The notes below the pieces were generated by a model. It was not told the origin of the DNA. It searched no databases and saw nothing but the letters and a program-made list of their open reading frames with translations. A stretch of 64,000 nt of DNA from Chloroflexota bacterium (GTDB lineage Bacteria; Chloroflexota; UBA11872; VXOZ01): contig OZ219802.1 of NCBI GenBank assembly GCA_964291655.2, forward strand, positions 1,888,001 through 1,952,000. Reading direction: 5' to 3'. Below, in pieces: positions 17,910 through 62,931 of the stretch (position 1 is its first letter; each line of letters opens with the position of its first letter). Made by a program: the position numbers and the translations under genes.

Positions 17910-18012
17910 GCGGTGCCTTCAAGTCCGCACTCAAGGTCAATCCCCTCTCCTGGGGAGATTCTTGCGTTACTCATCTGCAGGCGAGTAAACCTCCCTCTCC
18001 CTGGGGAGAGGG

Positions 18013-19299
18013 TGTATAGACCTGACACATAGTTTACAGGTGTACGAGGACATACTTTACACATGAGTTGGTATTTCTACACGGGGCAGAGGTCCGCGCA
18101 GGTTCAGCTCTGCTATGTGGTGGGTCATGAACCACACACTCCACACGCCGTCACTGGTGGTTGGTCTCAGGCCGATGTGGCAACCCACAAACGCCTTGCC
18201 GACGCGGAACTCTCGTCCCTGAAAGTTGACCCAACCTTCCGCCATCACCTTGCGCGTCTCGTCGCCGTCGCCATACGTGATCGGGGGGAGTTCCTCGGGG
18301 AAGGAGCGGCGGCTCGGCGCGTAGCGGCTCAGGGGCGTTGCCATGTGGAGGGCCTGGTGCGGTCGTTCCAGGTTGTAGACGTCCCGCCAGCGGTCCAGGG
18401 CCGCTTGGCAGGTCGCGAGGTCGGCGAACCGCCTGCCTTGCAGCGCCTCAGCCTGCAAGGTGCGGTGGAACCGCTCCTCTTTGCCCTGGGTCTGCGGATG
18501 GTAGGGGCGACCATGGCTCACCGACACGCCCAGCCGCAGCAGCCAGACGGTAAGCCTGGTGTACGGGTGCGCGGCATTGCTGCCCCACGGCGACCCGTTG
18601 TCCATCAGCATACGCGCCGGCAGTCCGTAGCGGCGAAAGGCACTCGTCAGACATGCCCGCACCGTGTCTGCCCGCTCGTCCCCACAGGCCCACAGACCCA
18701 CGGCGAAGCGGGAGTGGTCGTCCAAGACGGTGAGCGGGTGGCAGCGCCCGGCGTCCACGGCGAAGTGACCCTTGTAGTCCATCTGCCACAGGTCGTTGGG
18801 ATACGGGTGTTCAAAGCGCTGCCAGTCCCGGTGCGTTCGCTCCACCGGGTCGATGAGATCGTGCCGATGGAGGATGTTGGTGATGGCGCTGGGGCTGGGA
18901 ACCACCGTGTGACCGGCGTTCAGCAGTGCGTGGTGGAGCTTGCGACCGCCCCACGCCGGGTGGCGCTTGCGCAGTTCTACCACGACCGCCTCCACCGCAG
19001 ATGGCGTGCGCCGCGGCGAGTGGTGCGGCCGACGCGAGCGGGACGTGAAGGCCTCTTCCCCCTCTTCGGCGTAACGATGCAGCAAGGCATAGCCAGTGGG
19101 CGGCGAGATCGCAAAGCGTCGACACAACGCGCGTATGTTCGCCCCCGGCGCTCGCGCCAAAGCGACGAATTCGCGCTTAGCATCCACAGCAGTACTCTCC
19201 TTCCAAGGCATGAGGCACCTCCTTCTTTACTCAGAAAGAGTGCCATACTGTGTAAAGTATGTCTGCGCACACCCGTTAAGTATCTCTCTGGTCTATACA
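18013..19299 (-). mobile_element. Complete IS481-family insertion sequence (1287 bp)
   Basis: ~49-bp imperfect IRs starting TGTATAGACC at both ends; 6-bp TSD AGAGGG at 18007-18012 and 19300-19305; single transposase ORF. Confidence 0.93.
18057..19211 (-). CDS. IS481-family DDE transposase
   Basis: MPWKE N-terminus, HTH, PNDLWQMDYKG, LDDHSRF, MDNGSPW, HPQTQGKEERFHRTL, YNLERPHQAL. Confidence 0.95.
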   Translation of the reverse strand: MPWKESTAVDAKREFVALARAPGANIRALCRRFAISPPTGYALLHRYAEEGEEAFTSRSRRPHHSPRRTPSAVEAVVVELRKRHPAWGGRKLHHALLNAGHTVVPSPSAITNILHRHDLIDPVERTHRDWQRFEHPYPNDLWQMDYKGHFAVDAGRCHPLTVLDDHSRFAVGLWACGDERADTVRACLTSAFRRYGLPARMLMDNGSPWGSNAAHPYTRLTVWLLRLGVSVSHGRPYHPQTQGKEERFHRTLQAEALQGRRFADLATCQAALDRWRDVYNLERPHQALHMATPLSRYAPSRRSFPEELPPITYGDGDETRKVMAEGWVNFQGREFRVGKAFVGCHIGLRPTTSDGVWSVWFMTHHIAELNLRGPLPRVEIPTHV

Positions 19300-19665
19300 A
19301 GAGGGTCGGGGTGAGGGGGTTATTTGCTACAATGGCCCTTTGCGTTGTGCAGCGTCAAGATGTATCAGAGTAGAATCGGTATGCATGTGGTGAGATTTCA
19401 GGAGATTCACCCTTACCCCCGTATCACGTACGGCGCAGGCTCTCGCCCTCTCCCGCCGAGAAAAACTTAGCGTAACTCCGTCATTCCGGCGAACGCCGGA
19501 ATCCAGAGCGCCCTTACAACTAAAGCTAGCATGATGTCAGGTCATTTCACCCCCATCCCAACCTTTCCCCTCAAAGGTGAAGGGTTATGCAAGAGTCTCC
19601 GTCGAGGGAGAGGGAACTCACTCGCATCCGTTAGGTTTCGCAGAGGGTCTCCTGGGCGAGAGGAC
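19300..19665. repeat. REP/MITE mosaic
   Basis: GGGTGAGGG and CCCTCTCCC motifs, CGTCATTCCGGCGAACGCCGGAATCC at 19479; 19484-19599 is homologous to the reverse complement of 42213-42329. Confidence 0.75.
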
Positions 19666-19707
19666 TAGAGTAAAAGCGAATCATCAATTGCCAATGGAAA
19701 ATCTAGC

Positions 19708-20751
19708 GTGAGCAGTGAACACTTTATGCGTAACGCAGGCCGCCAAAAGCGGGGCAACCGCGAGGTGCGCGAATCCGACGCACAGTCGGCAAATATTACC
19801 GCGCCAGAAAGTACCATCGCGGCTCCAGACTCGCCTTTGTCCGCCGACACGCGGCCCGCAACAGCCCAAGGTTCAGTGATCTCCGTTGCCGGCGCGCTGC
19901 TGCGTTCCACCCGTCCCCAGCAGTGGGTCAAGAATGTTCTCGTCTTTGCGGGTGTCATCTTTTCCCAGCAACTCACAGACGCCGATGCTGTGCAGTCCAG
20001 CGTGCTGACGTTCGGTCTCTTCGTGCTCGCGAGCGGCGGCATCTATCTCGTAAACGACATGCTCGATCTGGAAGCAGACCGCGCGCATCCGCTGAAACGG
20101 CGGCGTCCGCTGGCGGCGGGAGAAGTGCCGCTGCGCGCCGCCGTGGTCGCCGCCGTCGTCCTGCTGGGCGGCGCACTCATCGGTGCCTTCTTCATGCAGC
20201 TTGCGCTCGGGGCGATCCTGGCGCTCTATGTCGGCATGAATCTCGCCTACAGCGCGTGGTTGAAACACGTGATATTGCTGGACGTGTGCATAATTGCGTC
20301 CGGCTTCCTGCTGCGGGCAGCCGCGGGCGTCGTGGCCGTGCTTACGCCCATTTCACCTTGGCTCTACCTCTGCACGCTGCTGGCGGCACTGCTGATCATT
20401 CTGGGCAAGCGTCGCAGCGAACTGGCGCTGCTTGGCACTCAGGCCGCGGCCCACCGCCGCAATCTGGCGCGCTACACTACGGCGTCGCTCGACCGCTGGC
20501 TGAAACGCGTCGCCGTGACGACCGCAGCCGCGTATGTGCTCTATACGCTCTTTTCGCCCGCCACGTTCGGCAATCCGAAACTCATCGCCACGGTGCCCTT
20601 CGTCGTCTTCGGCTTGGTTCGCTACCTGCGCATAGCACGCGCGCCCGGCGGAGCCGAAAGCCCCGAGGCGCTGCTGGTCCGCGATCCCTGGCTGCTCGCC
20701 AGCGTCGTCCTCTGGGGCGCCACCGTGCTCGTGCTTTTGTATTTCGTATAG
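19708..20751 (+). CDS. UbiA-family prenyltransferase (decaprenyl-phosphate phosphoribosyltransferase-like)
   Basis: RPQQWVKNVLVF, YLVNDMLDLEADRAHPLKRRRPLAAG, AYSAWLKH, GKRRSEL; multiple TM helices; start uncertain. Confidence 0.88.
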   Translation: MSSEHFMRNAGRQKRGNREVRESDAQSANITAPESTIAAPDSPLSADTRPATAQGSVISVAGALLRSTRPQQWVKNVLVFAGVIFSQQLTDADAVQSSVLTFGLFVLASGGIYLVNDMLDLEADRAHPLKRRRPLAAGEVPLRAAVVAAVVLLGGALIGAFFMQLALGAILALYVGMNLAYSAWLKHVILLDVCIIASGFLLRAAAGVVAVLTPISPWLYLCTLLAALLIILGKRRSELALLGTQAAAHRRNLARYTTASLDRWLKRVAVTTAAAYVLYTLFSPATFGNPKLIATVPFVVFGLVRYLRIARAPGGAESPEALLVRDPWLLASVVLWGATVLVLLYFV

Positions 20752-21342
20752 GCCCCACTTGGCGCCTCTGTCGCTGTTGGCATGTCAAACTTGAATCCCC
20801 TAGGACTCACTGAGTGACAAGCGGAGGGTTTCCCCGCAAGGTAGCAGCTCAGCACACGGTAGAGTAAAGCCGCAAAGTGCCGTCATTTGTATGTTGAAAA
20901 TGGCGGACATATGAGCGAATGTACGTGGGTAACGCAAGGGGCGCGTTGTCCGTCATTCCCAAGCTAGGGGCGCGTTGTCCGTCATTCCCGCGCACGCGGG
21001 AATCCATCTTCTCCGGGGCATGTCAAAGAAGATCAGAATTGAGACGTGTAGCGCGGGGGCTTGTCCCCCGCTCTTTGCGCAAGAATCACGCACATGGCCC
21101 GACTTTCCCCAGCTAATCAAGGGATCGAGAAGCCTTGTGCCGGGAAATTGTGTTGCCGCTCCACTTTCGTCCTGTTCAGCAGAGAAACTCGACAGCGACG
21201 TGACGCCAATACCGACTGCAGTCCGTCATTCTCCTCCGGGGACAAAGACTTCACGCGCCAACTTCTTTGCTTCAACAGCCCAGGAGCGTATCCTTCGTGG
21301 CACAATTACAGTGACCCCGAATCCAATAGGACTATCGCACCC

Positions 21343-21735
21343 ATGACCACAACTGCTGAGACACCCGCCGCCATCCTGGAGCACCAGACCGCCGCCTGGA
21401 ACGCCGCGGACGTTGACGGCATTCTGCACGACTTCGCGCCGGATGCCGTGCTTACCAACGCCTCCGGCCAGACGCTCAGCGGCACCCCCGCCATTCGCCA
21501 GTCGCTCACGGCCTTCTTCAGCGCCTTCGCCCAGGTCCGCCTCACGGTGCGCGCGCTCGTCGCCCAGGGCGAAACCGCCGCCTGCGAGTGGGAGTTCTCC
21601 TGCCGCCACCGCCTCACCGGCAACGCCGCCCGCCTCCCCGCCAGTGTGTTTATCACCTGCAAGAACGGCAAAATCACCGAATGGCGCGAATACTACGACA
21701 CCGCCCAGTTCAAAGCGCAATTGGGACAAGGCTGA
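21343..21735 (+). CDS. SnoaL/NTF2-like domain protein
   Basis: AWNAADVDGILHDFAPDAV and NGKITEWREYYD motifs; start placed at ATG 21343. Confidence 0.85.
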   Translation: MTTTAETPAAILEHQTAAWNAADVDGILHDFAPDAVLTNASGQTLSGTPAIRQSLTAFFSAFAQVRLTVRALVAQGETAACEWEFSCRHRLTGNAARLPASVFITCKNGKITEWREYYDTAQFKAQLGQG

Positions 21736-21991
21736 TACTGAGGCATCGATGTTGGCTGTGAGTAATTCTCGCTGCTCATCCAATCTCGGAGCATTTGTGC
21801 TCTTGCAAACCGTCCGCAGACTAAGAACCATCTCCTGTTCATGTGACAAGGATGTGTTGGATAGCTTAGATAGCAGCGCCTTTACGGATGAAGAAGCTGA
21901 ACCGCCTTTTCCGCAGTGGCGCGCTCAGTTTCGACCGGCACAATTGCGGTTCTTGCCTTACCCGCGATAGGCTATCGGTAAGGAGGAGATC

Positions 21992-22105
21992 ATGATAGTC
22001 AAGGTCACTGCCAAACGCCAGGTAACCTTTCCCAAACACGTTCTGGATGCCATGGGCGTAGGACCCGGCGACCGGCTTGAGTTGCTGGAGGGCCCTGATG
22101 ATTGA
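21992..22105 (+). pseudogene. Truncated AbrB/MazE/SpoVT-family DNA-binding (antitoxin-like) ORF, 37 aa
   Basis: Strong RBS AAGGAGGAG then MIVKVTAKRQVTFPKHVLDAMGVGPGDRLELLEGPDD*; swapped-hairpin signature but stops early; no toxin follows. Confidence 0.7.
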
Positions 22106-22168
22106 CCCGCGCAACCAGACGCTCAAGAGGCTGCCCGCTGTGCGTCTCAAAGTTCTCTTGAAGAGTCC

Positions 22169-22789
22169 ATGAGTGCGACGCAACGAAAGATATCCGACGC
22201 CGCGGTGCGGAAGGCGACCGGCAAGGGCTGGGACGAGTGGTTCGTGCTGCTCGATGGCGAGGGGGCGGAGGCGCTGCCGCACAAGCAGATTGCGCGCCTG
22301 CTGTACGACAAGGGCTACATCACGAGCGGCTGGTGGTGCCAGATGGTCACCGTGGAATACGAGCGCGCCCGGGGCAAGCGGGTGCTCGGCGGTACGGAGA
22401 AGGCCGAATTCCAGATCGGCGTGCAGAAGTCGCTGCCGCTCTCGCCGGAGCACGCCTGGGACCTCATCACGCAGCCGGAAGGGCTCGCCCTGTGGCTCGG
22501 CACTGCCCCTGACCTGCGCTGGGAAAAGGGCGCGGCATACGCTACGGCAGAGGGCACGCGCGGCGAGGTCCGCAGCTTCACGCCGGAAAAGCACCTGCGC
22601 TTGACCTGGCAGCCGCCGGACTTTCCCGCTCCCTCTACCTTACAAGTCTCTCTGGAGCCGAGCGGCACAAAGACCGCCGTTCGCTTTCATCAAGAGAAGC
22701 TCGCCAACGCCGAGGCACGCGAGCAGATGCGGACGCACTGGCGGGAGGTTCTGCAGAAGCTGGCGGAGCTTGTGGAAGCTCGCAAATGA
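22169..22789 (+). CDS. SRPBCC/AHSA1-like domain protein
   Basis: ATGKGWDEWF N-terminal domain; C-terminal EVRSFTPEKHLRLTW...REQMRTHW START-like fold. Confidence 0.78.
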   Translation: MSATQRKISDAAVRKATGKGWDEWFVLLDGEGAEALPHKQIARLLYDKGYITSGWWCQMVTVEYERARGKRVLGGTEKAEFQIGVQKSLPLSPEHAWDLITQPEGLALWLGTAPDLRWEKGAAYATAEGTRGEVRSFTPEKHLRLTWQPPDFPAPSTLQVSLEPSGTKTAVRFHQEKLANAEAREQMRTHWREVLQKLAELVEARK

Positions 22790-23060
22790 ATGCGCCGCAG
22801 TGTGGCACACGCGCCACGCATCACGACAAGTAATCCTTTAGGGATTCTCCCGCGAGATCCCAACCTAATTCAGGGGAAGAACCAAGATCGAGCGGAAAGA
22901 GGAACTTGACGACGCGTTCGCAGTGATCGAGACCTACACCCCCTGGATTCCGGCTTGCGCCGGAATGACGGTAAGTTCATCACCCTGCGCCGCAAGAGCA
23001 CGCATTACGTGACCGCCATTGCGACTCATTTCTCGCGTTCCGCCGGGTGAAGCTTCCGGC

Positions 23061-25055
23061 CTATACCGCGTCGGAGACGGCATCGGGTTGCTGTGCAACC
23101 CGTTCCTGGTGGACGTGCGGGGGCAGCTTGCTGGGGGCGGCTACGTAGCGGGCGGCGTTCACCACCACCGCCACTGAGCCGAGGTTATGTGTCAGCGCGG
23201 CAGCGATAGGGCCGAGCACTCCGGTCGCCGCCAAGGCGATACCGGCGAGGTTCCAGACCAGCGCGAAAAGGAGATTCTGCTTGATGCCGCGCAGGGTCAT
23301 CTGGCTGATGGCAATCGCTGTGGGCAGTTGGCCGATGTCGCCGCGCATCAGGGCGATGTCGGCGGTTTCCGCCGCTACCGCCGTGCCGGTGCCGCCCATC
23401 ACAATGCCGAGATCGGCAGCCGCCAGCGCCGGGGCATCGTTCACGCCGTCGCCGGCCATTGCTACCCGTCTGCCGTCGTCCCGTGCGCCCCGTATCCATT
23501 CAACCTTGCCTTGCGGCAGCAAGCGGGCGTGCCAATCGTCGATGCCCACGGTCTCTGCCAGGCGCTTTGCCTCTGGCTGACGGTCGCCGGTGAGCATCAC
23601 AACCTGCCGGATGCCAAGCGCGTGGAGGTGCTCGATTGCTTGCGCCGCCGCCGGTCGCACGGTATCGGCAAACTGTATCCAGCCGCAAAAAGCTCCTTCC
23701 ACAGCAACTAACAGCAAGCTGCCGTCATGCGGTGCGGCCTCCTGCGGCGGCACGCCCGCGACGCCGTTCTCGCGGAGAAGTTCTCCGGTGCCGACCAGGA
23801 CGTGCTGTTGCCCGACGCGTCCTTCCACCCCTCTGCCCGGATACGCGCGAAAGTCTGTTGCAGACGGCAGATCGAGGGTTTGTGCAGCGGCATGACTCAC
23901 GAGCGCTTTGCCGAGCGGGTGTTCGGAATAGCGTTCCACCGCCGCCGCGAGCGTAAGCAGAGTCTCCGCCGCCATGCCCTCAGCCGGGATAACCTGCTGT
24001 ACCACGGGCGTGCCGAGGGTGAGCGTCCCGGTCTTGTCCACTGCTACGGTATCCACAGCGCCGGCGGCCTCGAAGCGGGCGCCGCCCTTGATGAGAATGC
24101 CCTGCCGCGCCGCGTTCGCTACCCCGGCGACAATAGCGGTAGGCGTCGCCAGGACCAGCGCGCACGGGCAGGCGATGATCAACACCGCCAGCGCCGCGCT
24201 GAGATTACCGGAAATCAGCCACGTGGCGCTGGAGACCAGCAGAATGGCAGGCGTAAAGTACTTGGCGTAGCGATCCGCCGCGCGCACGATCGGGGCGCGC
24301 TCCTCTTCAAGGGCGTCCAGCAGCCGTCCAATCTGCCCCACATACGCATTCTCACCCACCGCTTCCGTGCGAATCGTAAGCGCGCCGTCCTGGTTCAACG
24401 TACCCGCATACACGCGGTGCCCCGGCTCCTTGTGCACAGGGAGCGATTCACCGGTGACCAGCGTCTCGTCAACTGCCGCCGTGCCCGCAATTACCACGCC
24501 GTCCACCGGCAGGCGCTCACCCGGCTTCACCAGCACCCTGTCGCCTGGCTGCAAAGCGTCCGTGCTGACCTCTTCAATCTCGTCGCCCTCCAGGCGATGG
24601 GCATGCTCGGGCTGGAGCTCGGCCAAGTGTTCCAGCGCCGCCGTGGCGCGCTGGCTGGTGGCCTCCTCGAGCAGCTGGCCGAAGATCATCATGAAGACCA
24701 CGAGTCCGGCGGAGAGGTACTCACCGACCAGCACCGAGGCGATGACGGCAATGCTCACGAGTTCATCCACGTTCACCTGCCGCTGCCGCATGCCCTGCAG
24801 CGCACCCCACACGATGCCAGTTCCGCCAATAACAACCGCCGCCAGCGCCAAGCCCACGGCCAGGTAGGACTGGCCTTCCGGCACCAGTGATATCGTCAGT
24901 GTCTGGCCCAGATGGAAGTGCTGTGCAGCTCCTCCCTCGCTCGTGAAGGAGACCAGCCAGGCGGCGAGAATCAAGACACCCGTCGCCGCTACGGTGCGAA
25001 AGTGCGACGACCGCACCACGGGGCCGTATGTCTGCCAGAGATTGGAGAAAGGCAT
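23061..25055 (-). CDS. Heavy-metal-translocating P1B-type ATPase (ZntA/CadA-like)
   Basis: TGES, CPCALVLATP, DKTGT, SEHPL, MLTGD, GDGVNDAPAL motifs. Confidence 0.93.
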   Translation of the reverse strand: MPFSNLWQTYGPVVRSSHFRTVAATGVLILAAWLVSFTSEGGAAQHFHLGQTLTISLVPEGQSYLAVGLALAAVVIGGTGIVWGALQGMRQRQVNVDELVSIAVIASVLVGEYLSAGLVVFMMIFGQLLEEATSQRATAALEHLAELQPEHAHRLEGDEIEEVSTDALQPGDRVLVKPGERLPVDGVVIAGTAAVDETLVTGESLPVHKEPGHRVYAGTLNQDGALTIRTEAVGENAYVGQIGRLLDALEEERAPIVRAADRYAKYFTPAILLVSSATWLISGNLSAALAVLIIACPCALVLATPTAIVAGVANAARQGILIKGGARFEAAGAVDTVAVDKTGTLTLGTPVVQQVIPAEGMAAETLLTLAAAVERYSEHPLGKALVSHAAAQTLDLPSATDFRAYPGRGVEGRVGQQHVLVGTGELLRENGVAGVPPQEAAPHDGSLLLVAVEGAFCGWIQFADTVRPAAAQAIEHLHALGIRQVVMLTGDRQPEAKRLAETVGIDDWHARLLPQGKVEWIRGARDDGRRVAMAGDGVNDAPALAAADLGIVMGGTGTAVAAETADIALMRGDIGQLPTAIAISQMTLRGIKQNLLFALVWNLAGIALAATGVLGPIAAALTHNLGSVAVVVNAARYVAAPSKLPPHVHQERVAQQPDAVSDAV

Positions 25056-25300
25056 CGTCTACACCTGCTGAATTCTATTCACGCGCATCACAGTCAGCCT
25101 GGGACGCCGGTTTTGCAGCCGCGGAGTCGAAACAAGGCTATCCTGAAATGGCGATTGACCTTCGGTACGGCCGCGGCACAAAGCGACTGCTTCTCTACAG
25201 CCAATAGACTATATGGAATCTGGGGGCGCACGCAATCCCTGCCCTGCAAACGGCCTCATCCACTGCCGATCCTTGTCAGACATTCTACACCGGTGCACTT

Positions 25301-25329
25301 TTGACATGCGCGGCCAACATCGCTATACT
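25301..25329 (+). promoter_or_regulatory. Sigma70-type promoter upstream of the pheS leader
   Basis: TTGACA (25301-25306), 17-bp spacer, TATACT (25324-25329). Confidence 0.82.
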
Positions 25330-25335
25330 ATTGTC

Positions 25336-25533
25336 TTGCAAAGTAGCATAGCCCTTGCTTTAGGGGCATTTCCCAACAATACCTGTGGCGAGGGGCAATT
25401 AATTTATCCGTGGGCGTGGCAGTTTACGGGCCCGGAGAGCCGGGCAAAGTCTAGGCGAACCACGGAGACGTAGCCTAGCAGATCACCCGCCTTTCCGGCT
25501 GAACAGAAAGTGTTTACCCGCTTTCTGTTTTTT
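25336..25533 (+). ncRNA. Putative structured leader RNA / sRNA of unknown family
   Basis: Between promoter and terminator; stems TCCGTGG/CCACGGA, GCCCGG/CCGGGC, CTAGGC/GCCTAG (pseudoknot topology). Confidence 0.55.
25502..25533 (+). terminator. Intrinsic terminator / attenuator ahead of pheS
   Basis: AACAGAAAGTG-tttacc-CGCTTTCTGTT followed by TTTT. Confidence 0.75.
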
Positions 25534-25583
25534 GTTTGTGAAACGCAGCATTACTATATCTTGAAACGTAGGAACGGCAACCG

Positions 25584-29343: not shown

Positions 29344-29401
29344 TTAGCGTGCTGAGGGAGAGAGATTAGTAAATTCGCCGCTGGTTTTGGCTAGTTAAGA
29401 C

Positions 29402-41458: not shown

Positions 41459-41864
41459 GCTTCCGTGTTAGACTCCGCACGATTCAGGACATGCAGGCGG
41501 CGCAAGTCAATGGCTTGTTTGGCCCTGTGTCTAACCTCGCCGCCGCTATCGCGCTGGGCTGGGACTCTCTCCTACGAAGCCTCCCCTGCGCTACCTTGAC
41601 ACTGCAGCGAAACCCTTACCATACTGAGAGCGTTGCACGCATTGCGCAGGCAACGAGATGGCGCACCGGTGTCTCGCCTTCTCGCTGTAGCAAGGTCAGG
41701 GTAGGCTTTAGCTCTCTTCTTAGAGATACCCCAGTGCCGGGGTACGGGGTGAAGGGAAACCCCGCAATCTGAGCCACCTTGACCGACCTGGTGCACTTGC
41801 GTAAGAGTCCTATAGGTAGAGAGTACCGGGATAGCAGGAATCCCCTCACCCCGGCCCTCTCCCC

Positions 41865-42151
41865 TGTATAGACCGGGTTGATGGGTAACACATGTTCGGG
41901 TTGATAGGTTACACCATCGAATATGGGAGTTTTCGTTGTATGCAGTGTCCATGCCATGGAAGTTAGACCAACTCAATACCCTTATGGATACGGTTTTTCC
42001 CCTGGCACCAGCTCACGAACTGAACATGAGTATGTCGTGGTGCCTGGAACGTCTATTTCTCTGCCCAACCTAAAGCGCCCGAAGGTGTCAATCAGTACAA
42101 TGTGTAACCTATCAACCCGAACACCTGTTACCTATCAGCCCAGTCTGTACA
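41865..42151 (-). mobile_element. IS481-type MITE, family A variant 2 (287 bp)
   Basis: Ends TGTATAGACC / GTCTGTACA, each with two GGGTTGAT(A/G)GGT(A/T)ACA-type repeats; 6-bp TSD CTCCCC; homologous over its length to 52748-53035. Confidence 0.9.
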
Positions 42152-42329
42152 CTCCCCAGGGGAGAGGGGGTATACGTGACAGTTTTTCGGGTCGTGCAGG
42201 GGTCTCCCCAGTGAGACTTTTGCATAGCCCTTCAACTTGGAGGGGTAAGGTTGGGATGAGGGTGAAACGGCTTGACATTATGCTATTGTTGGTTGTAAAG
42301 GCATACTGGATTCCGGCTTGCGCCGGAAT

Positions 42330-52464: not shown

Positions 52465-52747
52465 GTGCCAGTAGCCGCCGTTCGTCCTGAGCCTGCCTGC
52501 CCTGAGCCGGTCGAAGGGTCGAAGGATGAAAAGGCGGGAGAATACACCTGAAGCGAGACGCAAAGCAACGAATGAGAGTAGCGCGGGGGCTTGTCCCCCG
52601 CCGTTCACGCTAAACCCCACCAAGGGCAAGTAGTCCAATTTGGCTGCTTTGCTGAGTCAGAGCGACGGTAGCACAGGATATTGATGTATGGCGCACTAAG
52701 TCGATTACACCAATCCAGCGCTCCTCTGGTTCCCTCTCCCTGGGGAG

Positions 52748-53035
52748 TGTACAGACCGGGGACATAGGTAACAGTTGTTCGGGGACATGGGTTACACATT
52801 TTACTGATTGACACCTACGAGAGCATTGGGTTGGTCCGGGTTTGATAAGAGACTGGCGACACAGTGCACTCACTTTCAGCCTGTCAGCTTGTGCCAGAGA
52901 AACAAACTGTGTGCATAAGGATATTGAGCGGATCTAACTTTCAAGGCAAGGACATCGCATACTACGAAAATCCCCTCGTTCTATGGTGTAACCTATGTGC
53001 CCGAACATGTGTAACCCATGTACCCGGTCTATACA
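52748..53035 (+). mobile_element. IS481-type MITE, family A variant 1 (288 bp)
   Basis: Ends TGTACAGACC / GGTCTATACA, two GG(G/A)CAT(A/G)GGT(A/T)ACA-type repeats per end; 5-bp TSD GGGAG; apparently identical to 62464-62751. Confidence 0.92.
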
Positions 53036-53124
53036 GGGAGAGGGCTAGGGTGAGGGGGACCCCTCAAGTCGACTAGGTTGAACCAGTAAAAGAAACATAG
53101 CAAACACCAAAGAGTAGAGAGACT

Positions 53125-55921: not shown

Positions 55922-55929
55922 GGGGCGCA

Positions 55930-56412
55930 ATGCCAGATCTTCCAATCTATATATACTGGGACGCCAACTGTTTCTTGCATTACATCAATGACACGCCAGA
56001 GTACATAAACACGCTACAGGGGATTTTGAGCGAGGTAGAGCAGAGCGAGGGGAAGCGCAAGATTGTCACTTCCATTTTGTCATTAGTAGAGGTGGCACAC
56101 TCGGGCCAAGAACTTATCGACCGAACGCTCGACGAGTCGGCACTTAACAATATTGATAAGCTCTTCTATGACAGCAGCGTGGTGTTGCTTGTAGAGTTTA
56201 CGCCGTTCATCGCGAAACAGGCCCGCGGAATAATGAGAATTGGTTTGGAGGAAAGCCTTAAGCGAGATCCACGCGACTGCATACATCTTGCGACCGCTAA
56301 GTACATGAAAGTGTGTGAGGCCCACACTTATGACAAAGCGCTTTGGGCCTATTCAGACCATCTTGGGATCAAAGTTTGCGAGCCGCGTGTCCAGAATCCA
56401 CGCCTCTTCTAA
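55930..56412 (+). CDS. PIN-domain (VapC-like) nuclease
   Basis: IYWDANCF, TSILSLVEV, RDCIHLATA, HTYD acidic catalytic motifs. Confidence 0.85.
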   Translation: MPDLPIYIYWDANCFLHYINDTPEYINTLQGILSEVEQSEGKRKIVTSILSLVEVAHSGQELIDRTLDESALNNIDKLFYDSSVVLLVEFTPFIAKQARGIMRIGLEESLKRDPRDCIHLATAKYMKVCEAHTYDKALWAYSDHLGIKVCEPRVQNPRLF

Positions 56413-56433
56413 GTCAGGAATGCGACAACACCC

Positions 56434-57750
56434 CTAACTTGCCGTATCGCGCTTCTGAACCGTCTTTAGTGCCGCCCGGGCGCGGTCGAGAATCTCGCCT
56501 ATGTCCTCATCGCTGTGGGCGAGCGAGAAGTAGAGCTTCTCACCCGGATTCGTAAGGATACCGGAGCGGAGCAGCTCTTGGGCGAATGCGATGCGCTTGG
56601 TATTGTCGGTCTGCAGGCAGTCGCGGTAGCTGCGCAATTCCCCTTCGCCGAAGAAGACCTGCAGCAGCGGCCCTGCGCCGATGGCTTGCAGCGGCTCACC
56701 AAACTCCCTGCCGAGCGCTTCCAGCCCTTCGCGCACTGTATCGCCAATCGCGTGCAGACGCGCAAAGCTGCCTTCTTCCTGCAGCACGCTCAGGGTTGCC
56801 AGGCCGGCCACGGCGCTCAGGGGATTGCCGCTGAACGTGCCGCCCATCCAGACGTAGCGCGGCGTGCCACGGATAGCCGACGAGACCACCTCCATGATTG
56901 CGGCGGGTCCGGCCACCGCGGCCTGCGGATAGCCGCCGCCCAGCGCCTTGCCGAGCACTGCCAGATCCGGCTCCACGCCGTAGTATTCCTGCGCGCCGCC
57001 CCAGGCCAAGCGAAAGCCGGTGACGATTTCGTCGAAGATCAGCAGCGCCCCGACTTCGTGTGCCAGGTCGCGCACGGCGGCCAGGAAGCCCGGCTCCGGA
57101 TTGAGCGCCCGCTGGAGCGGTTCCATGATGATGGCTGCCAGGTCGTCACCGTGTTGGTGCACCAGCTCGCGGGTCAGGTCGAGGTTGTTGAACTCCGAAA
57201 TCAACACCTGCTCTTGCACCTGCGCCGGGATGCCGCTGCTGTCCGGAATGCCGTGGGGATAGTCGCTGGTGCGGGGCGGCGCGGTGCTCAGGGTGGCGTA
57301 ATCATTGCCGCCGTGGAGCGCGCCTTCGAATTTGAGCACCTTGTTGCGGCCGGTATAGGCCCGGGCGATGCGCACCGCGTAGAAGGTGGCCTCCGTGCCG
57401 GTGCTTACGAAGCGGATCTGCTCGGCGCACGGCACGGCAGCGACTACTTGCTCGGCAAGCCGAATTGCCGGTTCGTTCAGGAGAAAGTACGTCGCGCCCT
57501 GCGCGACCTGTGCCTGCACCGCCGCCACCACCGCCGGATGGGCGTGCCCGATGAGCACGGGCCCCGATCCCAGGATGCAGTCGATGTACTCGCGTCCGGT
57601 CATGTCCCACACGTGGCTGCCGCGCCCGTGGGTGACCACAATCTGATATTCGTCCGGCAGCCGCCACAAGCCGGAACTGCCGCCTGGAAAGTGCTGCCGG
57701 CTGGACGCCAAGAGTTCCTGCTGTGTTGCCGCCATTGACAAAGGGTTCAT
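56434..57750 (-). CDS. Class III aminotransferase (glutamate-1-semialdehyde aminomutase-like)
   Basis: GREYID, GTEAT, LIFDEIVTGFR, PDLAVLGKALGGG, GTFSGNPLS. Confidence 0.88.
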   Translation of the reverse strand: MNPLSMAATQQELLASSRQHFPGGSSGLWRLPDEYQIVVTHGRGSHVWDMTGREYIDCILGSGPVLIGHAHPAVVAAVQAQVAQGATYFLLNEPAIRLAEQVVAAVPCAEQIRFVSTGTEATFYAVRIARAYTGRNKVLKFEGALHGGNDYATLSTAPPRTSDYPHGIPDSSGIPAQVQEQVLISEFNNLDLTRELVHQHGDDLAAIIMEPLQRALNPEPGFLAAVRDLAHEVGALLIFDEIVTGFRLAWGGAQEYYGVEPDLAVLGKALGGGYPQAAVAGPAAIMEVVSSAIRGTPRYVWMGGTFSGNPLSAVAGLATLSVLQEEGSFARLHAIGDTVREGLEALGREFGEPLQAIGAGPLLQVFFGEGELRSYRDCLQTDNTKRIAFAQELLRSGILTNPGEKLYFSLAHSDEDIGEILDRARAALKTVQKRDTAS

Positions 57751-58170
57751 GTTATTGCTTCCTTACGCGAATTATTGCAGACGCTGAGTGCCTATCACAT
57801 GTGTGGATTCCGGCGCAGGCATCGGCTACTTGCACCGGATTGGTGGGGCTGCACACCAATCGCAACCCTCCGGTCGCAGGCTTGCGCCTGGGCCTTGCGC
57901 AAAGTATCTTACCATGCCGCCAATTGACTCCGGTCTCTGCCCCAAGGAGAGCTATGTCCAAACGCTGGATTTGGGGCGTGGATTGGGTGTATGGCAGAGT
58001 TTCGCCCTCACCCCGGCCCTCTCCCCCCGGGAGAGGGAGAAAGAATCTGTGCCCTTGGATGAGGTTTCGAATTGGTCTGCACAAGCGTCGCTAATGGGTG
58101 TGGTGCGAATGGGTTTCTCGACACGTCTGCGGACCCTGACTCCGCGGACGGCAAGAGGCCCAAGACTATG

Positions 58171-59214
58171 CTACGCAAGCACCTCGTCAGCGTGAGCGAA
58201 GAGCGAGGGAATGCCGCCCGTGTGCACGAAGACGACGCGCTCGCCTGGCTTGAAGGTGCCGTTCCGCACCAGGTCGATGAGGCCGGACATGGCCTTGCCG
58301 GTGTACGTGAGGTCGAGCAGGATGCCTTCGGTGCGCGCCACGGTGTGCACCGCCTCGCGGCCCGCGGCGGTGGTAATGCCGTGTCCGGCGCCGAAGTACT
58401 CTTCGCGTACGTCCACTTCATCAGCAGTTAAAGCGCAGGGGATGCCGTAGTAGTGCGCGGCGGTTTGGGAGAGGGCGGCAATGCGCTCGCGCTGCGGCGG
58501 ATTCTGCGGGCGGATGGAGATGCCAGTGACGTGGTAGGGCAAACCCAACGCCTTCACCGTGGCGGCAATGCCGGTGTGGGTGGAGCCGGAACCGGAGGTG
58601 ACGACAATTGTCGTCGGCTGCTCCGGCAGGTGCTGCAATTGCTCGTGCAGCTCCAGCATGCCGCTCAAGTAGCCCACCACGGACTTGACGGCAAGTTCGG
58701 GATACTTGTTCGTGAAGCGGTAGGGCCGCCTGCCCTGGGCCTTGAGCGATTTCACGCGCTCGTCGATGATGGCCTGCACGCCCACGTCGTCGGCATCGGG
58801 CGCGACCTCCACGTGCGCGCCGAAGAGGTGGTCGAGGAGCAGGTTGCCCTGCACGTCCGCCCGGTGCTTTAGCGCTCCCAGAACGAGGAAACACTCCATC
58901 CCTAGTTTCGCCGCGGCCGCCGCGGTCTGGCGGCACTGGTTCGATTGCGGATACGCGCCGGTAATGATGCAGTCCGCGCCCTGGGCGATGGCTTCACCAA
59001 ACAGAAATTCCAGGTTGCGCGTCTTGTTGCCGCCCAGCGCCAGGCCGGTCAGGTCGTCGCGCTTGATGGAGATGTCGGAACCGCCCAGGTGCGCCGTGAG
59101 GCGTGGGCAATTGTCGAGCGGCGTGGGTACATGCGCCAACTGAGCGCGCGGAAGAGCAGCCAGCATCTCGCGAAAGGTCTCCGTCGTGATCGTCGGCTGT
59201 TCCGGAATAGCCAC
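58171..59214 (-). CDS. D-cysteine desulfhydrase / ACC deaminase family PLP enzyme
   Basis: PTPL, IKRDDLTGLALGGNKTRNLE, QSNQCR, SGSGST, LDLTYTGKA, FVHTGG; start placed at GTG 59214 after AAGGAGG. Confidence 0.9.
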   Translation of the reverse strand: MAIPEQPTITTETFREMLAALPRAQLAHVPTPLDNCPRLTAHLGGSDISIKRDDLTGLALGGNKTRNLEFLFGEAIAQGADCIITGAYPQSNQCRQTAAAAAKLGMECFLVLGALKHRADVQGNLLLDHLFGAHVEVAPDADDVGVQAIIDERVKSLKAQGRRPYRFTNKYPELAVKSVVGYLSGMLELHEQLQHLPEQPTTIVVTSGSGSTHTGIAATVKALGLPYHVTGISIRPQNPPQRERIAALSQTAAHYYGIPCALTADEVDVREEYFGAGHGITTAAGREAVHTVARTEGILLDLTYTGKAMSGLIDLVRNGTFKPGERVVFVHTGGIPSLFAHADEVLA

Positions 59215-59837
59215 TGAATGCTGCCTCCTTGGGCATTTCGCAACCCTCATTACCGCTTGAGTACTCAACGCACCGCTACTGAGAGTGAGATCCCCGCTCT
59301 CAGTGGTGCCCCGTTTCGGCGTGCGGGGCAGGCATTGTGCCGTTGTAAGGAATACGCCGGCTTCGTCGTAGATGTGGAATTTGGCAGGAGCGGTGAGAGT
59401 CTCCCCTCACCCCAACCCTCTCCCCAGGGAGAGGGAGCAAACCGCGCGCCTTGGGCCCGAGGGGTAGGAGCACTTCGCGTGCCTTTGGCCCGGGGAGTGG
59501 GAGCATACCGTGCGCCAATCAGGCCACTAAATAGGAGTCGCTATGCGCCCTTGGCTCTACCCCGCAAAGCCTGTTCCGTACCTTGATAGGGAGTCTCCCC
59601 AGGGCATGGGGGTCTTCTTGCCTGCCGACCTTTCTTGTGCAAAGCATGCGGGGTATGCAAAACGGGCTCTCCGCTCGGAATTGTCTAGAGTCTGACCCGT
59701 ACTTGAAGCGGAGGGAGGGATATTCCCTGCCAAGACAACCTACACCGGCCCGCTTGACGGAAATTTGCTCCGCTTGCCTCGCGCCGCCAAATTCGAACTT
59801 CAGCTTTCGCGGCACGTAGGGGCGTTAGCGTCGCTGC

Positions 59838-60305
59838 TCACGTAGTAGTGTTCACGGCGACAGCTTGAAGTTCGGCTTCGATCTGCTCCAGCCGTTCCCG
59901 TACGCGCAGGGAACGCTCGTCAAATTGGTCGCGCATTTCAGCCACCTGGCGCATGCGCCCATCCAGCACTTCGACCTGTTGCTCCAGAATTTCCAAACCC
60001 TTCCGCAAGGAATCCCGCTTGGTTTCCAGGTCGGACGCCTGCTTGCTTTCTTGCCGCAGCAGCTTGAGCGACTCCATCGCCTCCACCACCTGTTTGATTT
60101 CGCGCAATGAAAAGCCCAGCAGGCGCTTGAGCTGCACGATATTCTCCAGGCGGTCAATATCCGCAGCCGAATAGAGGCGGAAGCCGCCTTCCATGCGAGA
60201 GGGCGGCGCGAGCAAACCGATTTCTTCGTAATACCGCAGCGTGCGTGGTGTAAGGCTCAGTTGCTCGGCTACCTCGCCGATTTGAAGATAGCGTTCAGCA
60301 GACAT
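59838..60305 (-). CDS. MerR-family transcriptional regulator
   Basis: LQIGEVAEQLSLTPRTLRYYEEIGLL...GFRLYS...LGFSLREIK; start placed at ATG 60305. Confidence 0.92.
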   Translation of the reverse strand: MSAERYLQIGEVAEQLSLTPRTLRYYEEIGLLAPPSRMEGGFRLYSAADIDRLENIVQLKRLLGFSLREIKQVVEAMESLKLLRQESKQASDLETKRDSLRKGLEILEQQVEVLDGRMRQVAEMRDQFDERSLRVRERLEQIEAELQAVAVNTTT

Positions 60306-60415
60306 AGCAGTCCCCCAGCAGTTCCCCCGAACATGCGCACCATTCTCTGTTCGCACCGTATACCGTTACAGGCACGCCTTAATCATAGGGGGCAGTTTCC
60401 GTTAAAGTCAACGAC

Positions 60416-61237
60416 TTAGCTGTCCAGTCCTCCCTGGTTGCGGAAAGGCTGCGGCAGGCGTTGCAGCGACCCGTCCAAGAAGCGTGCAACCAAAGGATCG
60501 CTGCCGTGCAAATAGACCGGCCAGACTCTGAAGAAGTTGCCGCCGAGCAGCGCCGCGTCGCCGGCCGCGATCTGGTAGACCAACGCCCGCCGCGGCGTAT
60601 CGCTGTTATTGGGATGGGTGTAGTGCAGCAGATTGCCGTGGTGAATGGTCATGCTCCCGGCAGGTCCTTCCAAGTCGAACAGGTTGCCGTTGGCAACGTC
60701 GGGGGCGTAATCGTCGGCGGTGGAGCAGTGCCCCAGGAACGCGCCGTCCGCGTCGTGGTGACTCACCGGGCCGCGCGTGTGGCTGCCGGGGATGGCCTGC
60801 AACGCGCCGTTCCGCACCGTCGTGTCGTCCAGCAAGAAGGTTACCGCCAGCACGTCGTAATTGGTGAGTGGGTGAAAGGGGTAGTCCTGGTGCCAGTCCA
60901 CGGCGCCCTCACCTTTGGCGATGGGCTTCCAGTGGACCCGCGCCTGAATCAAATGCAGGTTCTCGCCGATGAGCTGCACGGAGGCTCCCACAAGCGCGGG
61001 ATGGTGCGCGGCCTCCATGAAGGCATCCTGCAAGAAGATCACGTCGTGAATAGCAACGGTGCGTTCCTTGCCGCCGCGTCGGAGCCGTTCCTCGTCCAGC
61101 GCGTCGGCGGCTGCCCGCAGCCCGGCGAGCTCCTGCGTCGACAGCACGTTGGGGAGAATCAGAAAACCGTTCTCGTGATAGGACGCGAGCTGCTCGTCGC
61201 TCAGGACCGGTTGGGCAGGGGCCGCCCGATTCGCCAT
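60416..61237 (-). CDS. Phytanoyl-CoA dioxygenase (PhyH) family protein
   Basis: YHENGFL, WHQD, NGALQAIPGSH, HHGNLLH, NNSDTPRRAL; start placed at ATG 61237 after AAGGAGG. Confidence 0.9.
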   Translation of the reverse strand: MANRAAPAQPVLSDEQLASYHENGFLILPNVLSTQELAGLRAAADALDEERLRRGGKERTVAIHDVIFLQDAFMEAAHHPALVGASVQLIGENLHLIQARVHWKPIAKGEGAVDWHQDYPFHPLTNYDVLAVTFLLDDTTVRNGALQAIPGSHTRGPVSHHDADGAFLGHCSTADDYAPDVANGNLFDLEGPAGSMTIHHGNLLHYTHPNNSDTPRRALVYQIAAGDAALLGGNFFRVWPVYLHGSDPLVARFLDGSLQRLPQPFRNQGGLDS

Positions 61238-61362
61238 AGTGCCGTCCTCCTTCTCGCGTAGTATTGCGGGGGCAAATGCATCTGTCAAGCCGGCTCGCTG
61301 CCGTGCACGGAATCGGCTTTGGTATACTGAGAAAAAGACGCGGCAGTGAAGGATAGCGCCCT

Positions 61363-61659
61363 ATGGCAGAGACGGAGTTGATTACACTGCGGCTCTTCGC
61401 GGTCTTTCGCGAAGCCCTGGGCAGTAGCACGCTGCAACAAGAAGTGCCCGCCGGGACGACGGTTGGCCAGGTGCTGGCCCGGCTCATTGACGAGTACCCG
61501 GCGTTGAGGGGCGCAGAAGCAGCCGTGTCTTTCTCCGTCAACCGCACGTACGCCTCGGCGGAAACGGTACTACACGCCGGTGATGAGGTAGCTTTCATCC
61601 CGCCGGTAAGCGGTGGAGACACTTGCCTGTCTTGGACACTCTCGCTTACCCCGGAATAG
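61363..61659 (+). CDS. moaD: Molybdopterin synthase sulfur carrier subunit with 13-aa C-terminal extension
   Basis: LRLFAVFRE...SVNRTY...GDEVAFIPPVSGG followed by DTCLSWTLSLTPE. Confidence 0.88.
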   Translation: MAETELITLRLFAVFREALGSSTLQQEVPAGTTVGQVLARLIDEYPALRGAEAAVSFSVNRTYASAETVLHAGDEVAFIPPVSGGDTCLSWTLSLTPE

Positions 61660-61671
61660 AAGCAAGAAGAC

Positions 61672-61910
61672 TCCCTCTCCCTAAGAAGACCACTGCATTG
61701 ACCTTGGCGAGGCGGGAAAGTTCCCTCTCCCGGCAGAGACCTTTGCATTACCCTTGCCGGGTCGGATAGGTCCCCTCTCCCGGAGAGACCCTTGCGTTAC
61801 CCTTGCAGGGTCGGATAAGTCCCCTCTCCCGGCGGAGACCTTTGCGCAACTCAAGCGGTAGCGATATAGTTCCCTCTCCCTCGACGGGAGAGGGCTAGGG
61901 TGAGGGTGGA
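61672..61910. repeat. ~50-bp tandem array of CCCTCTCCC / GAGACCTTTGC units
   Basis: Five CCCTCTCCC motifs at ~50-bp spacing; same unit type as 9198-9370. Confidence 0.85.
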
Positions 61911-62025
61911 TCTCCTGAAGTCTCTCCATATGCACACCAAATCTGCCCTGCTACGGCTTGACACTGCCCAGCGTAAAGGGCCATCGTAGCAACAAGACCC
62001 CCCTCACCCTGGCGCACTCCCCAGG

Positions 62026-62213
62026 AGGCCGTCTCATAAACGCATCGCTCCGTGTAGACTTGCCCTTCGACCCTTCGACAGGCTCAGGGCGAACGTAACA
62101 GGCAACAATCCGTTCGTGCTGAGGGCTTCGCGCAGCAGGCTACGCGAAGCCTGCTGCGCGAAGCCCTTGTCGAAGCACGATTTAGCTTATCAAATCGACT
62201 TATGAGACAGCCT
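62026..62213. mobile_element. MITE family C (188 bp) containing a REP doublet
   Basis: TIR AGGCCGTCTCATAA / TTATGAGACAGCCT; 6-bp direct repeat CCCAGG at 62020-62025 and 62214-62219. Confidence 0.72.
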
Positions 62214-62463
62214 CCCAGGGAAAGGGAGTAGCTCTTGCGCCTCCGGCCGGGGTTACGCAGAGGTCCCCGGCGGGAGAGGGCTAGAGCCTGCCCCCTACTC
62301 GATACAGCGTATCGACACGATACGGGGGTGAAGGGGGATTATCTGCAGCCCAGGCACGTATCTCTTCTCAAGGCTCTTTTCACTGCATTGGCGCACTTCA
62401 GTACAGGTCTTGCGGGTAGAATGGACAGGACTAGCAGAAATCCCCTCACCCCGGCCCTCTCCC

Positions 62464-62751
62464 TGTACAGACCGGGGACATAGGTAACAGTTGTTCGGGG
62501 ACATGGGTTACACATTTTACTGATTGACACCTACGAGAGCATTGGGTTGGTCCGGGTTTGATAAGAGACTGGCGACACAGTGCACTCACTTTCAGCCTGT
62601 CAGCTTGTGCCAGAGAAACAAACTGTGTGCATAAGGATATTGAGCGGATCTAACTTTCAAGGCAAGGACATCGCATACTACGAAAATCCCCTCGTTCTAT
62701 GGTGTAACCTATGTGCCCGAACATGTGTAACCCATGTACCCGGTCTATACA
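62464..62751 (+). mobile_element. IS481-type MITE, family A variant 1 (288 bp)
   Basis: Apparently identical to 52748-53035; 5-bp TSD CTCCC. Confidence 0.92.
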
Positions 62752-62931
62752 CTCCCCAAGGAGAGGGAGAATTTCTCGCGCCGTTGGCCAACCTTAAGCC
62801 GTTGGCCAACGTTTCAATGAAGTCGCCTGGGGAGTAGGATTGGGTAAGAGGTGAATCCTTGTCGATGCTGCCTGTCCCGCCAGCTTGACGGAATTGCGCA
62901 CAGGCCACATATTTTTGGGAGAAGCTAACTA

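Follow-up and report, generated by a model that had tools for sequence, protein, structure and literature searches.

In a bacterium of the phylum Chloroflexota, a clade of insertion sequences (ISs) of the IS481 family, together with two families of miniature inverted-repeat transposable elements (MITEs) borrowing its transposases, appears to insert site-specifically into one abundant intergenic repeat, a reading of the evidence as a whole to which a probability of roughly 0.85 is given. Four of these elements lie in a 64-kb stretch of DNA (the window, i.e., G000:C2:1888001-1952000, on contig C2 of the genome), where a preliminary description made from the sequence alone had recognised one IS481 element and three MITEs breaking copies of the same palindrome. 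Genome-wide, nearly all elements of this kind interrupt the palindrome, at fixed offsets that differ between two IS lineages. Targeting depends on the palindromic partner of the interrupted arm and on a third repeat, uninterrupted sites exist in a relative, and the same targeting recurs in other genomes.

Read directly in the sequence, the four window elements have the coordinates, ends and target site duplications (TSDs) first attributed to them, and each splits one copy of the repeat (positions are those of the window). The IS, designated ISA, is complete, 1287 bp long and one of four identical copies in the genome; it occupies 18013..19299 on the minus strand, with ends TGTATAGACC.../...GGTCTATACA. 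Its transposase is encoded by an open reading frame (ORF) of 384 aa at 18057..19211, also on the minus strand, and comprises two helix-turn-helix (HTH) domains, an rve (DDE) core and about 90 C-terminal residues without a Pfam family. The 6-bp TSD, AGAGGG, is found at 18007-18012 and 19300-19305. The motif split by ISA is on the plus strand, with a left part at 17993..18012, i.e., the C-arm CCCTCTCC at 17993-18000, the loop CTGG and the G-arm GGAGAGGG at 18005-18012, and a right part at 19300..19317, i.e., the TSD AGAGGG, the spacer TCGG and the third repeat, or tail, GGTGAGGG at 19310-19317. As for the MITEs, which are given without a strand, a MITE_A of 287 bp at 41865..42151 is flanked by the TSD CTCCCC (GGGGAG on the target strand) at 41859-41864 and 42152-42157, and splits a minus-strand motif with the tail CCCTCACC at 41843-41850 and the other arm GGAGAGGG at 42161-42168. 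A MITE_B of 288 bp at 52748..53035 has the TSD GGGAG at 52743-52747 and 53036-53040 and interrupts a plus-strand motif, the C-arm being at 52732-52739 and GGGAGAGGG-CTA-GGGTGAGGG at 53036-53056. A second MITE_B of 288 bp, identical to the former, lies at 62464..62751 in a minus-strand motif, with the TSD CTCCC (GGGAG on the target strand) at 62459-62463 and 62752-62756. Upon removal of the element and one TSD copy, CCCTCTCC-N4/5-GGAGAGGG-N4-GGTGAGGG is restored in all four cases. The window sequence also agrees with the break by ISA being 4 bp further tailward than those by the MITEs, and with both element orientations occurring relative to the target. Ten intact, unoccupied motifs remain in the window, at 9560, 10562 (10562..10593 on the plus strand), 39835, 42491, 42675, 42749, 42933, 58005, 59404, and 61872.

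The genome amounts to 3.47 Mb in two contigs (C1, 830 kb; C2, 2.64 Mb) with 59% G+C. BLAST searches with the four window elements and their 45-nt ends gave 151 end matches, which resolved into 72 complete TGTAYAGAC-ended elements, namely 28 IS481-family ISs (4 ISA and 24 ISB/ISC copies) and 44 MITEs; seven solo ends, either fragments or weak matches, were left out of all counts. Members of the IS481 family are about 1-1.3 kb long, have terminal inverted repeats (TIRs) starting with TGT and generate short TSDs. Here, the ISs measure 1287 bp (ISA) and 1265 bp (ISB and ISC, whose DNA is ~69% identical to ISA) and end in TGTAYAGAC; TSDs, with the MITEs included, are of 5 bp (44/69) or 6 bp (16/69). 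Their transposases score 293.3 (ISA), 290.1 (ISB), and 278.7 bits (ISC) on NF033577, the "IS481 family transposase" model (cut-off 224), the runner-up family model being IS3 with 117 bits against a cut-off of 160. Each is encoded by a single ORF of 384 or 397 aa, without the programmed frameshift of IS3 type, and the Pfam domains rve, rve_3, HTH_32, and HTH_28 are recognised; relative to the ISA transposase, protein identity is 55% for ISB and 53% for ISC. In each of the 28 IS copies, the frame stays open over 398 codons or more. MITE_A (11 copies, 287 bp) and MITE_B (33 copies, 288 bp) are multi-copy elements too short for a transposase, as is characteristic of MITEs; they are ~75% alike over their full length and their interiors are unrelated to the ISs. 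Identical copies are frequent (16/33 for MITE_B, 11/24 for ISB/ISC, 4/4 for ISA), which indicates that these copies are recent, and no two insertions have both outer flanks in common, from which it follows that they are separate events.

The idea of a helper IS mobilising the MITEs was sound, but the helper in question is not the IS of the window. Over 45 nt, the ends of MITE_B, including the copy at 52748, match those of ISB at 41 and 45 positions, and the ends of MITE_A match those of ISC at 43 and 45 positions, whereas either MITE matches ISA at only 27-33. The MITEs also have the same TSDs and target offsets as ISB/ISC. As such, MITE_B would be mobilised by the ISB transposase and MITE_A by the ISC transposase; the nearest cognate helper IS is found just upstream of the window, at C2:1884924-1886188.

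For the assessment of site specificity, palindromes were listed as CCCTCTCC/GGAGAGGG with at most one mismatch per arm and a loop of 2-8 nt, after in-silico excision of the 72 elements with one TSD copy. With margins, these palindromes represent 0.27% of the element-free genome, and 69/72 elements were automatically assigned to them (binomial P = 4e-173). Automatic assignment plus reading by eye places 71/72 elements in the palindrome, none outside the repeat family and none in other intergenic DNA. At C2:1707063, an ISA copy interrupts one arm of a motif with an IS1182 copy already present in the loop; at C2:1520257, both flanks are motif halves but from different motifs, i.e., the pair is recombinant; at C2:1507574, the element sits inside the second hairpin of a composite motif and is the sole one outside a CCCTCTCC/GGAGAGGG palindrome. 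The confinement to the repeat that four elements had suggested is thus borne out by the genome-wide collection, and, as in ISs targeting repetitive extragenic palindromic (REP) sequences, nearly every copy is in the repeat, the position within it is fixed, and empty sites exist elsewhere. About one third of the motif copies are occupied.

Perfect TSDs of 5-6 bp are present in 62/72 elements. The TSD midpoint was measured from the palindrome centre, tailward positions being positive, in the 61 assigned insertions whose TSD is 3 bp or longer. For ISB, ISC and the MITEs, it falls at +1 to +3.5 bp in 51 insertions, the tailward TSD words being GGGAG (21), GGGGAG (12), and GGGGA (11); six insertions are at the exact mirror position (-3.5; CTCCT or CTCCC) and one at +9.5. 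For ISA, the midpoint is at +7 to +9 in 3/3 insertions, and the fourth copy, read by eye, is in the same place, the duplicated segment being the final 5-6 bp of the G-arm, (A)GAGGG. In the coordinates of the 9-nt G-arm, the ISB/ISC group duplicates the first five nucleotides, at the junction with loop 1, and ISA the last five. Insertion into one and the same arm, as initially proposed, is not an absolute rule, given the six mirror-image cases, but a strong preference for the tail-proximal side (52:6; P = 3e-10). The orientation of the elements relative to the motif is about even (9:8 for ISB, 3:7 for MITE_A).

Such a distribution could in principle arise with no target specificity at all, by random insertion and survival only in a neutral repeat. 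The motif is indeed depleted in long open frames, since 126/292 copies are in frames of at least 150 codons vs 86% of the genome, a crude sign of a mostly intergenic location, and insertions in the motif are probably harmless. Nevertheless, non-coding DNA far exceeds 0.27% of the genome, yet other intergenic DNA holds 0/72 elements, the offsets are defined to the single nucleotide and differ between IS lineages, and many copies are identical, hence recent, which altogether makes this explanation highly improbable.

The repeat consists of three 9-mers about one helical turn apart, namely a C-rich arm, a pairing G-rich arm and a second G-rich copy (the tail), with the consensus CCCTCTCCC-N2-5-GGGAGAGGG-N3-GGGTGAGGG. 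The genome contains 292 palindromes, 213 of which have a GGTGAGGG tail on one or both sides. A closely similar pattern, CCCTCNCCC-N3-6-GGGNGAGGG-N3-GGGNGAGGG, defines TMECO (earlier BoxC/PIT), a class II purine-motif intrastrand triplex, for which the text of the source reports 3610 occurrences in 262 proteobacterial genomes, a presence also in some cyanobacteria, the loop-2 types TTA and CCG, and 23 motifs in E. coli K-12 (Holder et al., 2015; PMC4666352, where earlier work by Bachellier and by Maher is cited). According to the same text, an oligonucleotide of the TMECO class, an E. coli motif, forms a stable triplex in vitro, and the motif is tied to rearranged loci in E. coli and to "genomic instability," with no transposon link in the E. 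coli contexts examined there (PMC4666352). In the present genome, the published pattern has 48 exact matches and 141 when one mismatch per stem and a loop 1 of 1-7 nt are tolerated, all element-free; after in-silico excision, these numbers become 63 and 210, respectively. Loop 1 is often 2 nt with the stems counted as 9, below the published 3-6, and the 3-nt loop 2 is of type CCG (48), CTA (46), TTG (43), TTA (38), or TCG (20). By its sequence pattern, the repeat fits the BoxC/PIT/TMECO motif, and the GGTGAGGG tail fits the third strand of that motif. Regarding the term REP, the classical features, i.e., a short imperfect palindrome in more than 100 copies and extragenic, are found in the 292 palindromes, and an abundant palindromic landing-pad repeat was correctly perceived; it is, however, not a plain REP hairpin, since the TMECO pattern fits and the third repeat matters for targeting.

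Some further features of the repeat and of its surroundings can be mentioned. At G000:C2 ~2554000 (element-free coordinates 2509288-2509462), four or more motif palindromes follow one another in tandem with a period of 44 bp; their tail, CTCACCCTAA, is degenerate, and one of the units holds a MITE_A. In the window, further short intergenic repeats, with 20-69 copies in this genome and many copies in G008, a genome of the same genus, form a mosaic to the right of ISA (19306-19700), and one repeat block there follows the motif with ...TTGCTACAATGG..., resembling an extended -10 promoter. An Rfam scan of the whole window, including the three MITEs, gave no match at gathering score. A 226-aa ORF at G000:C2:2523379-2524059 (locus L083, 1399-2079; minus strand) reaches 82.2 bits on NF047646, the REP-associated tyrosine transposase (RAYT) model with a cut-off of 80; no motif of the kind studied lies within 1.5 kb of this borderline ORF, the lone pattern match there having three mismatches, so that mobilisation of the repeat by a RAYT is not claimed.

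In the same-genus genome G008, with flanks 94-99% identical, the sites of the 52748 and 41865 MITEs correspond to an uninterrupted motif with a single TSD copy, so that the comparison with relatives called for at the outset does reveal intact motifs at two of the window sites. No clean empty site was obtained for ISA (18013), in that relatives lack the IS but differ in the intergenic region (a composite motif in G012, none in G003), and no orthologue could be assigned for the 62464 MITE, whose flank is itself repetitive. These empty sites bear on the view that the motif halves are part of the elements, as longer terminal repeats, or are made by them, the target being illusory. Motif halves do flank every element, but 141 intact motifs are element-free, two orthologous empty sites carry one TSD copy, the asymmetric tail is on either side and faces either element end, the offsets depend on the lineage, and, according to the text of the source, 262 proteobacterial genomes contain the motif, whose E. 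coli contexts, where examined, show no mobile-element link (PMC4666352). This view is even less credible than survival without specificity, and the offsets and the empty sites rule out both.

Comparison of occupied and unoccupied copies shows what the target needs. Outside palindromes, GGGAGAGGG is occupied in 1/236 cases, the one being the motif occupied by IS1182, vs 69/292 palindromes (P = 1e-18). Among motifs with perfect arms and a loop of 4-5 nt, 50/130 of those with a tail are occupied vs 1/27 of those without (P = 2e-4). Many of the tail-less copies are of a composite type, their tail being set apart from the G-arm by a second hairpin; this second hairpin, beside the displaced tail, is occupied in 1/37 cases. 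The type of loop 2 also matters, CCG being occupied in 17/32 motifs vs 2/22 for TTA (P = 0.001), and motifs with a loop of 7 nt are less used (5/40 with perfect arms and tail). In the composite motif (37 sites), the second hairpin reads CCCCGTA-N5-TACGGGG, is preceded by (C/T)TAGAGCCTG and lies between G-arm and tail; examples are found at ~19400-19460 of the window (minus strand) and at 1455-1525 of locus L094 in G012.

Relatives were sought by a one-genome-per-species scan with the ISB transposase, the best 80 loci being considered, and element ends and flanks could be located in 75. Among the 48 evaluated loci with 60-84% protein identity, the insertion is in a full motif with tail in 29, has motif arms on at least one flank in 14 and is elsewhere in 5; nine of the 14 come from a single genome, where they occupy the precise centre of a 15-bp-stem version and have the TSD GGCCT or AGGCC. 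Relatives with the same targeting are present in at least 17 other genomes. Copies in a Desulfobaccales and a Thiotrichales metagenome-assembled genome lie in tailed motifs, at the tail-proximal junction between loop and arm. The TSD sequence varies with the motif variant, i.e., GGGAG, ACGGG (loop TTGAC), GGCCT, or ATACG; in short-loop variants, the site is ~3 bp tailward of the centre, as judged from copies read by eye, and in the variant with a 15-bp stem and a 7-nt loop it is central. In another genome (locus L020), an independent insertion is found at the same ATACG position of the second hairpin. With respect to the condition of these copies, 46/80 of the fetched transposase ranges translate without a stop, and those of loci L008 and L024 have one in-frame stop each; some copies in other genomes may be decaying.

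How the motif is recognised is a separate matter. One sub-mechanism, which is possible but which we consider doubtful, is recognition of non-B DNA, i.e., a hairpin or cruciform, or a purine-motif intrastrand triplex with the tail on the G-arm; transposases would be drawn to the distorted G-arm junctions, ISB/ISC and the MITEs at the tip and ISA at the base. Such a fold would account for the palindromic partner being needed (1/236 non-palindromic sites occupied) as well as the third strand (1/27 vs 50/130), for the 52:6 bias towards the arm that would carry this third strand, and for two IS lineages cutting opposite ends of one 9-nt G-arm. It is further consistent with TSDs that differ in sequence among motif variants but not in their placement relative to the hairpin tip, being exactly central in the variant with a 15-bp stem and a 7-nt loop, and with the off-type insertion here and the independent one at L020 both being at the junction of the loop and the 3' arm of the CCCCGTA/TACGGGG hairpin beside the tail. 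A motif-class oligonucleotide forms a triplex in vitro according to the text of Holder et al. (2015; PMC4666352), and the hairpin is the centroid fold predicted for the motif as single-stranded DNA. The z-scores of this fold against shuffles (-0.6 to -0.95) are nonetheless not distinctive, a measure that is uninformative for such G/C-rich words. On the other hand, staggered DDE integration over 5-6 bp needs both duplex strands, which the hairpin tip of an extruded cruciform does not offer, three 9-mers one helical turn apart would equally suit a multimeric sequence-reading protein, and the preference for CCG over TTA in loop 2 fits sequence reading at least as well. Nor was any replication-strand bias found between occupied (30:34) and empty (71:75) motifs (P = 0.88), although the test is weak, with uncertain origin calls from GC skew and an atypical C1; this absence of bias gives no support for the capture of a single-stranded fold at replication forks. 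As to C1, its cumulative GC skew is near-monotonic, with minimum and maximum a few kb apart at the contig ends, vs the two-armed profile of the 2.64-Mb contig.

The motif serves IS481 elements as a landing pad, as had been suggested, but it is not private to them. An IS1182-family IS of 1656 bp, present in 25 genome copies 98.5-99.9% identical and scoring 364 bits on NF033551 (cut-off 270), occupies loop 1 of the motif, with the 4-nt loop duplicated and IS ends GAGG(G/C)TGT; an example outside the window is G000:C1:64924-66579 (locus L104, 65-1720). The flanks read ...CCCTCTCC-loop / IS / loop-GGAGAGGG in 23/23 evaluable copies, two being at contig ends, and the long frame of this IS has no stop inside the element but continues across its right border and into the motif. 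Insertion at stem-loops is described, in the part of the literature covered, for IS1272 and further members of the IS1182 family (PMC5678879), and the 25-copy IS behaves likewise; as regards mechanism, the comparison is a lead. The 25-copy IS is unrelated to the IS481 clade. A more specific form of the non-B proposal, a little less probable than the general one, is that IS481-clade and, independently, IS1182-family transposases find their target via an intrastrand triplex or H-DNA-like fold and cut at the junctions at the ends of the G-arm.

Several observations weigh against site-specific reading of the motif by the IS481-clade transposases, or limit its extent. The use of one motif by three unrelated or distant transposase types (ISA, ISB/ISC, and IS1182-family) in three registers can be read as a sign that they are attracted by something inherent in the DNA, or by a host factor sitting on it, instead of having evolved three specificities separately; the observed pattern would be no different if a host protein were bound to the motif. 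A clean TSD is lacking in 10/72 elements (eight with none, one with 1 bp and one with 3 bp), and some flank pairs are recombinant. Motifs with a 7-nt loop exhibit no tail effect (5/40 vs 0/12), the tail-less (27) and composite (37) classes are small and may differ in age or context, and occupancy mirrors history as well as preference. Finally, among the 27 evaluated relatives with 56-59% protein identity, 4 are in a full motif, 10 next to arms and 13 outside such motifs, which implies that the targeting is not general to the IS481 family.

The host factor just evoked would be a motif-binding protein that tethers or activates transpososomes, the transposases having no motif specificity of their own. 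Classical REPs in E. coli are bound by host proteins. The encounter of two IS families, IS481 and IS1182, in one motif with three registers is in keeping with such a tether, and so is the conservation of the motif across phyla, which hints at a function in the cell or a cellular ligand. The analysis brought up no candidate protein, however, and the same IS clade reaches the same motif in Chloroflexota, Desulfobaccales and Thiotrichales hosts, all of which would require a conserved tether. Moreover, experiments on IS3-family elements cited in the main text of Tobes and Pareja (2006) suggest that specificity is set by the transposase. On balance, a host tether is unlikely, less probable than recognition of non-B DNA.

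Variation among the transposases offers some indication of the division of labour within them. The ISB and ISC proteins, compared e.g. between G000:C1:379525-380789 (L001) and G000:C2:685450-686714 (L002), are near-identical from about residue 93 and strongly divergent ahead of it (first ~92 residues), with a parallel divergence of the subterminal repeats; their target offsets are identical all the same. Two chimeric IS copies (C2:909903-911167 and C2:1793963-1795227) have one ISB-type and one ISC-type end. Altogether, this looks like modular exchange of an end-binding module and, because N-termini and ends differ yet targets are the same, suggests that ends are recognised by the first HTH (first ~90 residues) and that the target is read elsewhere in the protein. 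Even at E = 10, no Pfam family was detected in the 89 C-terminal residues of either the ISA or the ISB transposase. Among solved structures, the nearest relative is IstA of IS5376, of the IS21 family (8q4d, E = 2e-11), and as the match spans the catalytic core and the C-terminal part, the C-terminal region would be no special addition. A different kind of exchange may be reflected in two inverted MITE_B copies ~9 kb apart and without TSDs (G000:C2:1511277-1511564 and C2:1520257-1520544). The right flank of one and the reverse-complemented right flank of the other form a motif with a GGGGAG duplication, the other pairing being mismatched; an inversion by inter-MITE recombination, plus some further change, may have taken place.

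For the IS481 clade and its MITEs, the preferred explanation remains that the transposase itself reads the motif. Recognition would extend to the whole motif, i.e., the two arms plus the tail, whether through their sequence, through an altered DNA shape or through a combination of the two; the position of insertion would then follow from the geometry of the complex formed there, not from the local sequence at the cut site. Integration would be the usual DDE reaction, staggered by 5-6 bp, and a landing pad situated mostly outside genes would make a high copy number possible. We infer that the motif is read by the transposase and not by a host factor, and that the element benefits from such targeting; the motif, depleted in long open frames, may be a "safe harbour."

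The canonical target of IS481 is a short site of the NCTAGN type, and, to our knowledge, no member of the family is known to target a REP-like repeat. The elements described here resemble IS481 of Bordetella and typical members in transposase family, length (~1.0-1.3 kb), ends starting with TGT, and 5-6 bp TSD. REP-directed insertion itself is known for elements of the IS3 (IS1397, ISKpn1, ISPsy8), IS110, IS4, IS256, and IS5 families (Tobes and Pareja, 2006); IS481 is absent from the main text of that study, whose additional files could hold IS481 cases. The closest parallel is provided by the IS3-family elements IS1397 and ISKpn1, found in palindromic units, or REPs, of enterobacteria, and ISPsy8, which, as presented in that text, combine a DDE transposase of retroviral-integrase type, a fixed central site in a short, abundant extragenic palindrome and a short TSD (Tobes and Pareja, 2006). 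There, specificity is attributed to the transposase; here, the ISB/ISC N-terminal swap, which leaves the target unchanged, bears on this only indirectly. Unlike these IS3-family cases, the present system involves (i) the IS481 family, with a single ORF and no frameshift, (ii) the BoxC/TMECO repeat, in which the third repeat matters, and (iii) two matched MITE families, two lineages with two offsets and the occupation of about one third of the motifs. The IS110-family REP-targeters (IS621, ISPa11, ISPpu9, and ISPpu10) are similar in that all or nearly all copies are in REPs (7/7, 6/6; main text of Tobes and Pareja, 2006), but IS110 elements encode a different class of enzyme, lack TIRs and use a mechanism akin to site-specific recombination, whereas the elements here have TIRs and TSDs of 5-6 bp and give no hint of such chemistry.

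With regard to the repeat, the text of Holder et al. (2015) describes the same pattern, with class II stem order, loop-2 types TTA and CCG, intergenic location and multiple copies, but in proteobacteria and some cyanobacteria, Chloroflexota not being mentioned in that text, as distinct from the supplementary genome list. It gives no transposon link in E. coli contexts, while here the motif is the main target of ISs and MITEs. PMC12859917 and PMC2680597 deal, in the parts covered, with IS481 in other contexts only. Within main texts, the literature search found neither a link between the IS481 family and REPs nor one between intrastrand-triplex motifs and an IS of any kind, supplementary lists being where further cases could occur; the initial impression that this kind of targeting is not a described property of IS481 elements is supported to that extent. 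New are the IS481 family as a repeat-targeter, the widely distributed BoxC/TMECO target, the matched MITEs and a testable role of the third repeat.

Repeat-directed insertion is an example of mobile DNA gaining copies at no lethal cost to the host, and the IS481 family hereby joins the REP-targeting families, with unusually clean statistics. Within the literature searched, this is the first link between insertion and BoxC/TMECO, a cross-phylum repeat, and it offers a possible mechanism for the rearrangements reported at TMECO motifs. The dependence on the third repeat, together with the ISB/ISC N-terminal swap, makes two questions testable, namely which part of a DDE transposase reads the target and whether it is sequence or shape that is read; the 23 motifs of E. 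coli K-12 reported in the text of Holder et al. (2015) constitute ready-made assay targets. For annotation, split motif halves flag the borders of ISs and MITEs in Chloroflexota genomes. If triplex-guided insertion were true, non-B DNA would be directing transposition in nature, and the traffic of ISs and MITEs into these motifs would be a tangible source of the "genomic instability" associated with triplex motifs across bacteria in the text of Holder et al.

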